From a bacterium (GTDB taxonomy: Bacteria > Zhuqueibacterota > Zhuqueibacteria > Oceanimicrobiales > Oceanimicrobiaceae): a stretch of 18,194 nucleotides of DNA. The notes under the pieces are model-generated. The model had not been told where the DNA came from and searched no databases. It worked only from the letters and a program-made list of their open reading frames with translations. The stretch spans positions 1 to 18,194 of the forward strand of contig JBHHXN010000109.1 of the NCBI GenBank assembly GCA_046757025.1, given 5' to 3'. Made by a program: the position numbers and the translations under genes. This document shows, piece by piece, positions 814-17,745 of the stretch. The stretch's first letter is position 1. The number at the start of each line of letters is the position of its first letter.

Positions 814-1599
814 CTACCGCAAAAGCCGCTCCCGTTCCTCCAATCCGCGCAGGGCAAAAAATTGCAGCAAGACTCCCAGAACCATCAAAGCCATGCGGTT
901 TTGCCACATCCAGAGCTGCCAGGTCTCCGGGTCCAACTGGCGGGGCACGTCGTACGGGTTAAAGTAGAGAAAATAGCGGGTTTCGTACAAGGCTTCGGAA
1001 AACATCGAAAGCAGGATCAGAATCCCGCCTGAAACCATGCCCGCGGCAAAGCCGCTGCGAAATTTCACCGCAAAGTACAAAGTCATGCCGCCGACAAAAT
1101 AGGCCGGCACAAAACCATGCGCCGCGGTGCCCCAAACAGCCATATCTGCAATGGTAAAAAAGGCTAAATGACTCAAACCGATACTGATCATGAGTAGAAG
1201 CAGATTCAAAGTCGTGAGACGAAATAACCAGACTTTATACCTCGAACCCGCAGTGGTAAACATCACCTCCAGCGTGCGGTTTTCCTTTTCACTGGATATG
1301 AGCTGCATATTCAAATAGACCGCTAACACCGTTAACGGCAGCGCCACCAGCCAGGGCAGGATGTCCTCCTGGGTCATACGGTCGATCATGGACTGCCGGT
1401 AATTGATGACATAAACCAGCACAAAATAACCCAGGATGCCGAGCAGAAACCAGACGAATTTTTTCGAAAACATGATCTGCACCTGTCGGCGAAAAATTTC
1501 CCAGCAGACCGCCAGTTGACTCCTAACGCTCAGGCTGCTGAATCGTTGGTAAATCGCAGCGTTTTTTGTGAGTAGTTTCAGGGTTTGTTTTTGGTTCAT
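814..1599 (-). CDS. ABC-2 type transporter permease (about 6 TM)
   Basis: About six hydrophobic segments and the motif ISSEKENRTLEVMFT typical of ABC-2 family membrane subunits. Last gene of the operon, directly after the ATPase-bearing fusion. Confidence 0.85.
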   Translation of the reverse strand: MNQKQTLKLLTKNAAIYQRFSSLSVRSQLAVCWEIFRRQVQIMFSKKFVWFLLGILGYFVLVYVINYRQSMIDRMTQEDILPWLVALPLTVLAVYLNMQLISSEKENRTLEVMFTTAGSRYKVWLFRLTTLNLLLLMISIGLSHLAFFTIADMAVWGTAAHGFVPAYFVGGMTLYFAVKFRSGFAAGMVSGGILILLSMFSEALYETRYFLYFNPYDVPRQLDPETWQLWMWQNRMALMVLGVLLQFFALRGLEERERLLR

Positions 1600-1613
1600 G
1601 GTTTTTTCTCAAC

Positions 1614-1648
1614 TAAACCTTCCAGGTCTCAAAGACCTGGAAGGTTTA
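1614..1648. repeat. Perfect 16-bp-stem palindrome (REP-like hairpin)
   Basis: TAAACCTTCCAGGTCT-CAA-AGACCTGGAAGGTTTA has arms that are exact reverse complements. It overlaps the stop codon of 1646..6394 and has no U-tract on the coding strand. Confidence 0.85.
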
Positions 1649-16400: not shown

Positions 16401-16716
16401 TGGTCATGGGTTTGGAAAGCATTACCTGATCGAGCCGGGCTTTTTCTTCTGCTTTGCGAAAATCACCGGCTACAAAGATCACCAGAATCGCCTGCAGGTA
16501 GCTGAAAATGTACAGAGCCAGATAGGCGTCGGTGCCTTCCAGCAAAAATTCCCCCGGAATATCATCCGCGAGAATTGTGGCTACGGTCGTTCCGATTAAA
16601 AATAAAAGTATCATGCCGATTCCGATACACGCCAGAATCCAGAATTTGGCAGTTCGGTAGAGCATGGTCCGCTCTACCGCGGCAATGGTTAAAATAAAGC
16701 GAATGGAGTTGCGCAT
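13417..16716 (-). CDS. ABC-2 permease / M1 aminopeptidase-like / golvesin-like C-terminal domain fusion protein
   Basis: The N-terminal ~280 aa have ~7 TM with an ABC-2 motif (EEKARLDQVMLSKPMT...LGKYLG). The middle has M1-like motifs (HYDF, FSLNSGL.V, WYPV, YPYEKLVVVEVP, YKAPPVLQMM, FFRQWF). The C-terminus has ARW...GEYE...GWYPLGRYYF...IADAIRW, typical of golvesin/CBD-like beta-sandwiches. Confidence 0.82.
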   Translation of the reverse strand: MRNSIRFILTIAAVERTMLYRTAKFWILACIGIGMILLFLIGTTVATILADDIPGEFLLEGTDAYLALYIFSYLQAILVIFVAGDFRKAEEKARLDQVMLSKPMTTANWVLGKYLGVVSALLYLNIFLMLLATAGRIMKMIFTDTGFNVLPFIEYFVVATVPAILFMTALVFFLVSLLRVQFMAIILAGGYVASIWFYFHHKFSGLLDYAGFFAPLFWSDLIGFGDIRIVLWQRLFFVLLALSLLGFSVLLYPRLRQSVWSHRLTQVLAFSFLFAATGVGYGLVQQSKKIMAARQTDLAFQKDWRAKPACRVSHYDFYIKFSDERDPLQVTAKMAVTNPHNQPLAELVFSLNSGLRVQQVRWHDGQAISHVHSNQLLQLDMADRPLPPNSVDTMVVVYAGKIDADGFMLDRLPDQKGLIDKTNGPWTQGNISAWLSRDFAVLPAQCGWYPVPGAAAGYDFAAENSKNFTTAVVLVQTQPDLSVITQGTKVSETESGAKKVWRFEVTTPVPGFSLNIGKYKRLAHSFKHMEIQLYFREKHLLDYEEFADVADTCFEAVDRIFDLFEEVTGAIYPYEKLVVVEVPLQMQVYPTRHGLNNILQQPGVIWIDEVTVASKRIAKVIESKTKRARKRGRDDSPKKIKRDVFIELVLDIFLSDRLWRRDSTLISPIPNYLHFQLDFADPVLRRGLELQLYESCERKIRDLFYPDRWNAALSSFDRMRQNEWRWATRRRYHVEIDTIIVKLSKWPLTSLRPETDGNVYRACVDYKAPPVLQMMQERIGENNYLQALKKLLKEKRYQRVSREDFLRTVQSAASVDVQDFFRQWFDQATFPGYRITKAEAEKLDTGKMKIVYQVTARVQNGERGDGFVRLVCETKNDKIRRNLPLGSYEEKEILLALTDLPKTIEVVPYFSRNRGKIKKQITLANRIKRETPRDTVLTVQSVTDSMFFVLDDQDDGFFTPVNPETKYLRPPSKGKSWWENTNPFAYGKYYFGWRMKRAGDGDYPARWETRVPRDGEYELSFYFNAGESWVKRNLSQTFQMNITSADGKFPYEFQPQETVDGWYPLGRYYFTQNKPAVVELEDVGKGFLIADAIRWEYVP

Positions 16717-16827
16717 TTATTCTTGATTCCGAACTTTATTGACAAATTCGTAAAACAACCGTGGGTAGACAAATTATCGAAACGGATAGCGTTTTTCGTT
16801 CTTTATTTCTCAAAATATTTCAACATT

Positions 16828-17745
16828 TCATCTCGGTCCACTTTCAACCAGAGCCGGCTCCTCTTCCACGCGTTCTCCGGCTTCCTGCGCCATGAAAAAC
16901 ATGTAAGCATCTTCCAGATTGGGCGGCATGCTTTGCATGTTGAATTGCGGCATGGGCTCGCCCACCACGCGCAAAAGTACATGGCGTTCTTTGGAGATGG
17001 ATGAAATAATCTGCATCTGTTCCGCAATGGATTGAAAATCCGATTCATCGCATTCCACCCGCCAGACTTTGCCGCCAGCTTTCTGAATCAGCTCCTGTGG
17101 ATGACCGCGATAAATCACGCTGCCGTTTGAAAGCAGCGCCAGGTCCTTGCAGGTGCTGGAAATGTCCCCGACGATATGGGTGCTCAAAATGATGATTTTG
17201 TCCCGACTGATTTCTGTGAGCAAATTGCGAAAGCGGATGCGCTCTTCCGGATCCAGCCCGACAGTGGGCTCGTCGATGATGAGCAGCTCGGGATCGTTGA
17301 TCAAGGCCTGTGCAATCCCCAGGCGTCTCAGCATGCCGCCCGAGTAGGTTTTTACTTTGCGGTCGCCCGCTTCCAACAGTCCCACATTCGCCAAGGTCTC
17401 CTGCACCCGCTGCTTCAAATTTTGCGGTGGATGCGGGCTGAGTTTTGTGACGTAGGTCAAAAATTCCAGGCCCGTGAGACGCGGGTACACCCCGAAAAAT
17501 TGAGGCAAGTAACCCAGACAGGCGCGTATTTGTTTACGCTGAGTTTGAATCGACTGTCCGTTCAACAGAACTTCACCTGAGGTTAGAACTTCCAGACAGG
17601 CTAATATTTTCATGAGGGTGCTTTTACCGGCCCCGTTGGGACCGAGCAAGCCAAACATGCCGGAGGAGATGTCCAAATTCACGTTTTTCAGCGCTTGAAC
17701 GCCGCCAGCGTACGTTTTACAAAGCTCATGGATGACAATTTGCAT
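16828..17745 (-). CDS. ABC transporter ATP-binding protein (DrrA-like)
   Basis: Walker A GPNGAGKST, GYLPQ, YSGGM, LLIIDEP, STH and C-terminal PNLEDAY. Confidence 0.97.
   Translation of the reverse strand: MQIVIHELCKTYAGGVQALKNVNLDISSGMFGLLGPNGAGKSTLMKILACLEVLTSGEVLLNGQSIQTQRKQIRACLGYLPQFFGVYPRLTGLEFLTYVTKLSPHPPQNLKQRVQETLANVGLLEAGDRKVKTYSGGMLRRLGIAQALINDPELLIIDEPTVGLDPEERIRFRNLLTEISRDKIIILSTHIVGDISSTCKDLALLSNGSVIYRGHPQELIQKAGGKVWRVECDESDFQSIAEQMQIISSISKERHVLLRVVGEPMPQFNMQSMPPNLEDAYMFFMAQEAGERVEEEPALVESGPR

Follow-up and report, generated by a model that had tools for sequence, protein, structure and literature searches.

The window analysed here is the whole 18,194-bp contig JBHHXN010000109.1 (contig C109 of a 5.96-Mb draft genome, designated G000), and its DNA is also present in hydrothermal-vent metagenome runs, all of one study. 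Positions 814-17745 are occupied by seven open reading frames (ORFs), all on the minus strand, whose positions and domain matches agree with the gene inventory that had been proposed from the sequence in the original prediction (Table 1). They encode the parts of an ATP-binding cassette (ABC) transporter and of a resistance-nodulation-division (RND) pump, together with an adaptor and a TolC-family channel, and one of the two RND subunits continues into one of the two ABC ATPases. The cluster likely encodes a single export assembly, composed of an ATP-driven ABC-2 (type V) transporter and a two-subunit RND pump that are coupled through the ATPase covalently attached to one of the RND subunits.

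Table 1. Genes, protein regions and spacers of the cluster, with positions in the 18,194-bp window (aa, amino acids; TM, transmembrane helix; NBD, nucleotide-binding domain).
Feature	Position	Strand	Basis or remark
Free ABC ATPase (NBD1), 305 aa	16828..17745	-	PF00005; Walker A/B, Q-loop, signature and H-loop intact
Large ABC-2 membrane subunit, 1099 aa	13417..16716	-	Weak ABC-2 match; M1-peptidase and Golvesin_C matches
TolC-family outer-membrane channel, 508 aa	11830..13356	-	PF02321, TIGR01844
RND periplasmic adaptor, 352 aa	10696..11754	-	TIGR01730, 183 bits against a cut-off of 94.9
Decayed GIY-YIG nuclease element	10215..10605	.	PF01541; 29-nt inverted arms; local insertion outside the system
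RND subunit 1 (RND1), 1046 aa, 12 TM	7012..10152	-	PF00873
AT-rich spacer, 617 bp	6395..7011	.	Genome-wide repeats
RND-ATPase fusion gene, 1582 aa	1646..6394	-	PF00873 at residues 1-1011; PF00005 at residues 1309-1453
RND subunit 2 (RND2) moiety of the fusion, residues 1-1011	3362..6394	-	PF00873
Two extra predicted membrane helices after RND TM12, residues ~1024-1084	3143..3325	-	Model; hydropathy
First strand and A-loop Tyr1098 of the fused ATPase, residues 1085-1098	3101..3142	-	Invariance; structure alignment
209-residue insert within the ATPase, between strands 1 and 2: basic helix and four predicted membrane helices	2474..3100	-	
Fused ABC ATPase core, residues 1308-1582	1646..2473	-	Catalytic motifs all intact
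Small ABC-2-type membrane subunit, 261 aa, 5-6 TM	814..1599	-	Directly 3' of the fusion in nearly all loci

The RND-ATPase fusion is genuine and not an artefact of assembly, because the gene is spanned entire by one 4920-bp contig from another run of the same study and because all 120 fusion homologues among the matches listed contain both PF00873 and PF00005. The closest named homologues among these matches belong to candidate division KSB1, to which the host is therefore likely to belong as well, and the sources include Calditrichaeota, Acidobacteriota, Gemmatimonadetes, Latescibacterota and Fidelibacterota. A search with the inter-domain region of a Bacteroidota protein yielded 2717 protein matches among 5163 candidates, and both domains were found in 118 of the best 120 of the 2717, the other two being partial. 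The fusion linker had no match when searched against plasmids.

Within the fusion, the RND moiety is followed by two further predicted helices, the first strand of the ATPase, an insert and the ATPase core. The two helices after RND TM12 were predicted by the model, and hydropathy clearly supports one of them. The ATPase itself is interrupted, with 209 residues between strands 1 and 2, compared with 5 in the free ATPase, and the residues K1096 and Y1098 that precede the interruption are invariant (36 rows). A model of residues 960-1582, built with a 30-row alignment (mean predicted local distance difference test score, pLDDT, 78.7; predicted template modelling score, pTM, 0.63), places a strand at 1089-1098, then a basic helix (8 K/R vs 2 D/E), two helical hairpins and the ATPase core. 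Solved ATPases superpose on this early strand beginning at their residues 1-2, and LptB residues 2-228 match model residues 128-555 over 223 pairs at 1.7 Å (Z 28.5). All matches in fold searches with the C-terminal fusion model were to its ATPase part, and an Atlas search with the insert gave no usable match. On this model, the fused protein would be an ATPase fold accommodating a four-helix membrane insert. The insert is 168-235 residues long in the two alignments used (A1 and A2), the long strand spacing was found in 228 of 228 scorable proteins (from 244 stored proteins of at least 1450 aa), and the Walker A, Q-loop, signature, Walker B and H-loop motifs are intact in 36/36 and 30/30 fusion rows. 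At one locus, L040, the fusion has 1437 aa and a 47-residue insert, and the four membrane helices are absent.

In Wzt and TarH, the loop that joins strands 1 and 2 of the ATPase is extended, and this extension, known as the gate helix, is described as reaching the membrane at the interface of the two transmembrane domains (TMDs) (PMC6379404; PMC13649706), and the insert occupies this gate-helix position of the ATPase. The gate helices described there are short and cytosolic, whereas the inserts found here contain four predicted membrane helices; compared with Wzm-Wzt and TarGH, the extension is much longer and is restricted to the fused ATPase.

PF00873 matches both RND subunits over their full length, 12 TM are predicted in RND1, and the two adjacent paralogues are ~32% identical. 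Among solved structures, RND1 matches MdtB best (E 3.5e-101), and the MdtABC-TolC pumps likewise combine two RND subunits with one adaptor and one TolC; the overview in PMC8277102 lists MdtBC among the heterotrimers, which it calls rare. Unlike the Mdt pumps, which have no ABC part, the system described here has one RND that bears two extra helices and an ATPase. The first Asp of TM4 and the Arg and Thr of TM11 are kept in 37 of 37 rows for both RNDs (D423, R975 and T980 in RND1 and D398, R956 and T961 in RND2 are invariant), but two MdtB residues, the second Asp of TM4 and the Lys of TM10, are replaced in both, mostly by Asn. With the relay residues assigned to what we take to be the AcrB numbering, neither RND has the complete proton relay of two TM4 Asp, TM10 Lys and TM11 Arg/Thr. 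This Asp-Asn/Asn-Asn pattern is common to most other RNDs of the genome, none of which has a fused ATPase; tandem RND pairs on contigs C10, C59 and C219 show the identical pattern. A missing TM10 Lys was considered as the mark of an RND driven by ATP only, and this was ruled out, since the other RNDs of the genome share the replacement. Because most of them, tandem pairs included, have the same relay pattern, the RND pair resembles a two-RND operon of a common kind, with the ABC unit grafted onto it. The periplasmic domains of both RNDs are similarly conserved (39-53%), and the fused RND therefore does not look decayed at the sequence level.

It is unlikely, in our assessment, that the ABC unit serves as a motor and not as a carrier, with closure of the ATPase dimer pulling on the inserted helices so as to drive or bias the RND cycle while no cargo passes through the ABC-2 subunits. 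Such a motor would be consistent with an insert that is covalently continuous with the RND and lies in a loop reported to move by ~8 Å upon ATP binding in Wzt (PMC6379404), and with the lack of two MdtB-type relay residues in both RNDs; however, the Asn replacements are a trait of the lineage, also found in RNDs that carry no ATPase, the key residues Asp, Arg and Thr do not vary, the membrane insert is missing from L040, and relatives of the ABC half occur without a nearby RND.

The adaptor has a Cys after a short hydrophobic N-terminus in the window and in most of the relatives shown, and is likely a lipoprotein. It scores as RND-type with TIGR01730, far above MacA, and adaptor and outer-membrane factor are encoded alongside the RND genes. 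MacAB-TolC also joins an ATPase-bearing inner-membrane protein to an adaptor and TolC (PMC8277102, in its description of that pump), but MacB carries its ATPase at the N-terminus of its own permease, and that pump involves no RND.

The large subunit of the ABC half begins with 7 predicted TM (about residues 1-290), which are followed by a predicted periplasmic M1-aminopeptidase fold at ~300-945 and a Golvesin_C domain at 977-1095. The best Foldseek matches of its model (pLDDT 75.3) are M1 aminopeptidases (E 4.6e-20), and its M1 region matches the M1 domain of the stand-alone relatives described below (profile E 4.9e-19). The HExxH motif is kept in 12 of 14 of those relatives and lacking from all 21 large subunits of the family, which rules out an active peptidase, and the fold is, judging by this motif, catalytically dead. 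Golvesin_C was found in 21/21 of the same subunits. A large M1 fold kept without its HExxH, an accompanying Golvesin_C domain and cluster flanks with no conserved transcriptional regulator (51 genomes, ~2-10 kb) could also be read as a sensor-gated pump, in which the pseudo-peptidase and Golvesin_C bind peptides or glycans and the ABC unit toggles the tethered RND without feeding it. We consider this improbable, more so than a motor, as the large subunit of L040 is shorter (922 aa) and has no Golvesin_C match, and a binding domain suits a cargo-receiving role equally well.

The small subunit of the window has no Pfam match, and weak ABC-2 matches occur in 6 of the 32 members of its family (ABC2_membrane_2 in 4, ABC2_membrane_3 in 3). 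Its profile matches the membrane domain of the large subunit (E 5.5e-5), no match was obtained against PDB sequences, and its structure neighbours in the Atlas are annotated as ABC-2 permeases. With modest confidence, it can be assigned as an ABC-2-type membrane domain. A second small-subunit fragment, broken and containing a stop codon, lies at 5207-5371 of contig C216 of the same genome. The free and fused ATPases are 44% identical, and the catalytic motifs of the free ATPase are intact in the NBD1 alignment.

Control loci of related ATPases contained 14 single chains of ~1200 aa in which two ABC-2 repeats are joined to an M1 domain, with one ATPase encoded alongside. These stand-alone relatives were assigned to TC 3.A.1.145 by description and not by sequence; the ABC-2/M1-peptidase fusion exporters of this Transporter Classification (TC) family are described for Myxococcus Q1D520 (PMC3924187). 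The large subunit matches the two stand-alone repeats at profile E-values of 9e-15 and 1e-12, and the small subunit matches them weakly, at 7e-6 and 1.5e-5. A quick tree of 63 ATPase cores grouped the fused (19 rows, support 84), the free (11 of 12 rows, support 90) and the stand-alone ATPases (14 rows, support 99), and all three share one clade with 3 other rows (support 91). The two systems share an M1-aminopeptidase fold placed after ABC-2 membrane domains, and their ATPases belong to one clade. The differences are that the TC 3.A.1.145 proteins are single chains with 12-13 TM and mostly HExxH, have one ATPase gene and, at the loci examined, no RND, whereas here the membrane part is divided between two genes, the large subunit has 7 TM and no HExxH, Golvesin_C is added, and there are two ATPases, one of them RND-fused. 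The simplest reading of these comparisons is that the ABC half is a split relative of TC 3.A.1.145, in which the two membrane repeats and the two ATPases came to be encoded separately; one of the two ATPases of such an exporter would then have been joined to an RND subunit. Three-gene loci in Bacillota and Chloroflexota (L041, L056, L062) encode an ATPase, a membrane and M1 protein of 727-792 aa and a membrane protein of 228-248 aa; RND is absent from all three, and HExxH is kept in two.

The original prediction, which is partly supported as a whole, had read the ABC genes as one fully heteromeric transporter, and this reading is supported by two motif-complete ATPases and by membrane subunits that resemble the two repeats of TC 3.A.1.145. 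Its counts of ATPases and membrane subunits were right, although the split in the fused ATPase and the dead M1-peptidase fold had been overlooked. Two homodimeric ABC units, one of two fused ATPases (in a trimer with two fusions) with two small subunits and a separate one of free ATPase and large subunit, have a low probability, a little below that of the sensor. The free ATPase adjoins the large subunit and the fusion adjoins the small subunit, pairs that are mostly preserved in split and divergent arrangements, as two homodimers would predict; against this, the single-chain relatives as described in PMC3924187 join two different ABC-2 repeats to one M1 domain, both halves are gained and lost jointly, and in L040 the small subunit lies directly 3' of the free ATPase.

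The distribution of the genes was studied in 61 genomes of the class, including G000, with profiles for the small subunit, the fusion linker and the large subunit, which matched 33, 30 and 31 genomes, respectively. All 30 fusion-bearing genomes also hold both membrane subunits, and 28 of the 61 hold none of the three. The fusion-linker and large-subunit profiles were built largely from genomes of this class, so these positives are partly circular and related genomes are not independent. Three genomes are discordant: G059 is 88% complete and has its small subunit near a contig end, G017 has a 44-residue fragment, and G055 has a small subunit in two pieces and a best RND1 match of only 33%. Among 32 loci around the small subunit, all seven genes are present in 16, of which one has its middle five genes inverted and another has a stop within the large subunit. 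Contig ends truncate a further 11 loci, 3 loci are split and 2 count as remnants; the split genomes carry the missing genes elsewhere. In 121 Bacteroidales genomes (the order of a Sunxiuqinia metagenome-assembled genome, MAG), the fusion linker and the large subunit were found in the identical 17, two of which had contributed profile rows. Of 12 of these 17 genomes, 11 carry all seven genes in the order of the window, and the twelfth, G170, has them at four distant places of one 4.1-Mb contig (C1; L137, L138, L166 and L167); two further positives also show all seven, and the remaining three are fragmented. These results support the view that the seven genes are co-retained, being gained and lost together, and exclude one way in which the proposed neighbourhood conservation could have failed, namely that the ABC and RND genes do not co-occur.

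A third clade is represented by 22 metagenome loci, of which many are nearly identical; in it, the genes for adaptor, RND, fusion and small subunit remain linked, and in 2 loci the large subunit lies directly 5' of the adaptor. L040 (positions 482-16397) has all seven genes in a different order, with a 499-aa adaptor, and could possibly be a simpler or earlier form of the system. In a MAG of the Pseudomonadales, a divergent form of the cluster (L038:1-10900) has no TolC in the interval between large subunit and adaptor. The scan of GTDB for such loci was saturated on generic ATPase motifs and covered 1/64 of the parts, so it provides examples and not a census.

The window contains two long spacers of 543 and 617 bp, and clusters are split in some genomes, which might suggest that an RND operon and an ABC operon merely lie side by side and that the fusion is incidental. 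This explanation is largely refuted and highly improbable. With starts taken from the longest ORFs, the median lengths in relatives are 30 bp for the 543-bp spacer (33 loci) and 55 bp for the 617-bp spacer (36 loci), and co-retention is near perfect, even in a genome with scattered genes. Within the 543-bp spacer, a decayed GIY-YIG gene is flanked by inverted arms of 29 nt that themselves fold back, and ~90% identical copies of this element occur on contigs C129 and C28; parts of the 617-bp spacer recur on other contigs. The long spacers look like local insertions, and their use as a sign of separate systems was ruled out by the short medians, the mobile element and the repeats. A 17-nt inverted repeat pair lies in the 617-bp spacer (6516-6532 and 6764-6780).

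ABC ATPases function as dimers on membrane subunits. Since one ATPase is fixed to the RND and such dimers need membrane subunits, since the only co-retained ABC membrane subunits are the two of the cluster, and since the insert sits on the loop facing membrane subunits, a physical ABC-RND assembly is quite probable. In the arrangement that we favour, the free ATPase would bind the large membrane subunit and its fused counterpart the small one, so that each mixed RND trimer would have a single heterodimeric ABC unit, and the four inserted helices would clamp the lateral seam of the ABC unit beside the RND. The ABC unit might bring an amphipathic cargo to the outer face of the inner membrane, with lipid-linked molecules, or a lipopeptide that the dead peptidase domain would hold, as candidates, and a proton-coupled RND, the adaptor and TolC might then take it over the periplasm and outer membrane; these are the most conjectural steps of the scheme. 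The serial hand-off from ABC to RND is our best guess, modelled on gate-helix exporters and on the DrrABC-MmpL7 pair, and we hold it tentatively, at somewhat less than an even chance. DrrABC and MmpL7, which act in the mycobacterial export of phthiocerol dimycocerosate (PDIM), are described as a heteromeric type V (ABC-2) transporter and an RND-family protein that are jointly required for one lipid; a scaffold role is suggested there without direct evidence (PMC11539658). Unlike the system described here, that pair has no fusion, its MmpL-type RND is reportedly without relay residues, and it has a known lipid cargo and a biosynthetic cluster; in the sections of that source on the pair, neither an adaptor nor TolC is mentioned (PMC11539658). 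Taken whole, with the amphipathic-cargo hand-off included, our best explanation comes close to having an even chance of being correct.

Several observations count against this explanation. Proton coupling of the RND pair is not certain on sequence grounds, because Asn occupies the second TM4 Asp and TM10 Lys positions. The insert (mean identity 34%) and the extra helices (30%) are the least conserved parts of the fusion, with the ATPase core at 70%, and both appear from the alignments to be dispensable for the family as a whole, because they are missing in L040. The tree does not resolve the fused and free ATPases as sisters, and the profile matches leave undistinguished which of the two repeats corresponds to the small subunit. 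The cluster is split in G048, G036, G049 and G170, and in the third clade the ATPase and the large subunit are divergently transcribed in 10 loci and TolC was not found in any of the 22. The single operon with TolC that had been proposed is therefore common and not universal, and the core consists of the six inner-membrane and periplasmic genes. Finally, neither a substrate gene nor a regulator nor any other conserved neighbour was found among 516 flanking ORFs of 51 genomes (flanks of ~2-10 kb), nor were conserved glycan synthesis genes; the largest non-RND flanking cluster comes from 5 of the 51 genomes, and as flanking families recur in at most that number, the neighbourhood gives no hint of the cargo.

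This architecture is real, widespread and apparently undescribed; its parts come from known families, and its novelty appears to lie in their arrangement. A literature search found no description of a fusion between an RND and an ABC ATPase, although TCDB, subscription journals and supplements lay outside that search, and a database entry or a brief mention is possible. Tripartite exporters are classed by a single inner-membrane engine, ABC, RND or major facilitator superfamily (MFS), in the scheme that PMC8277102 presents. If our explanation is true, the system would be a two-engine machine, in which an RND-ABC ATPase fusion has been kept together with its own ABC membrane subunits in several phyla. 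One particle may contain both a type V ABC transporter and the RND trimer and use ATP and the proton gradient in one transport cycle, coupled via the gate-loop helices, with the dead peptidase as periplasmic cargo receiver, although we place this specific version slightly below an even probability. Cooperation of ABC and RND proteins on one cargo is, for DrrABC and MmpL7, inferred from genetics only in the account of PMC11539658, and the present system makes such cooperation directly testable.

Scans for promoters and terminators were near chance (23 found vs 16.9 expected, and 35 vs 25.5) and carry no weight here. At the left edge, positions 1-124 of the minus strand hold the 5' part of an ORF that continues beyond the contig edge and that we take to resemble the N-terminus of an insertion sequence transposase. 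At the right edge, positions 17960-18194 are a repeat that has dozens of copies in the genome, often at contig ends.

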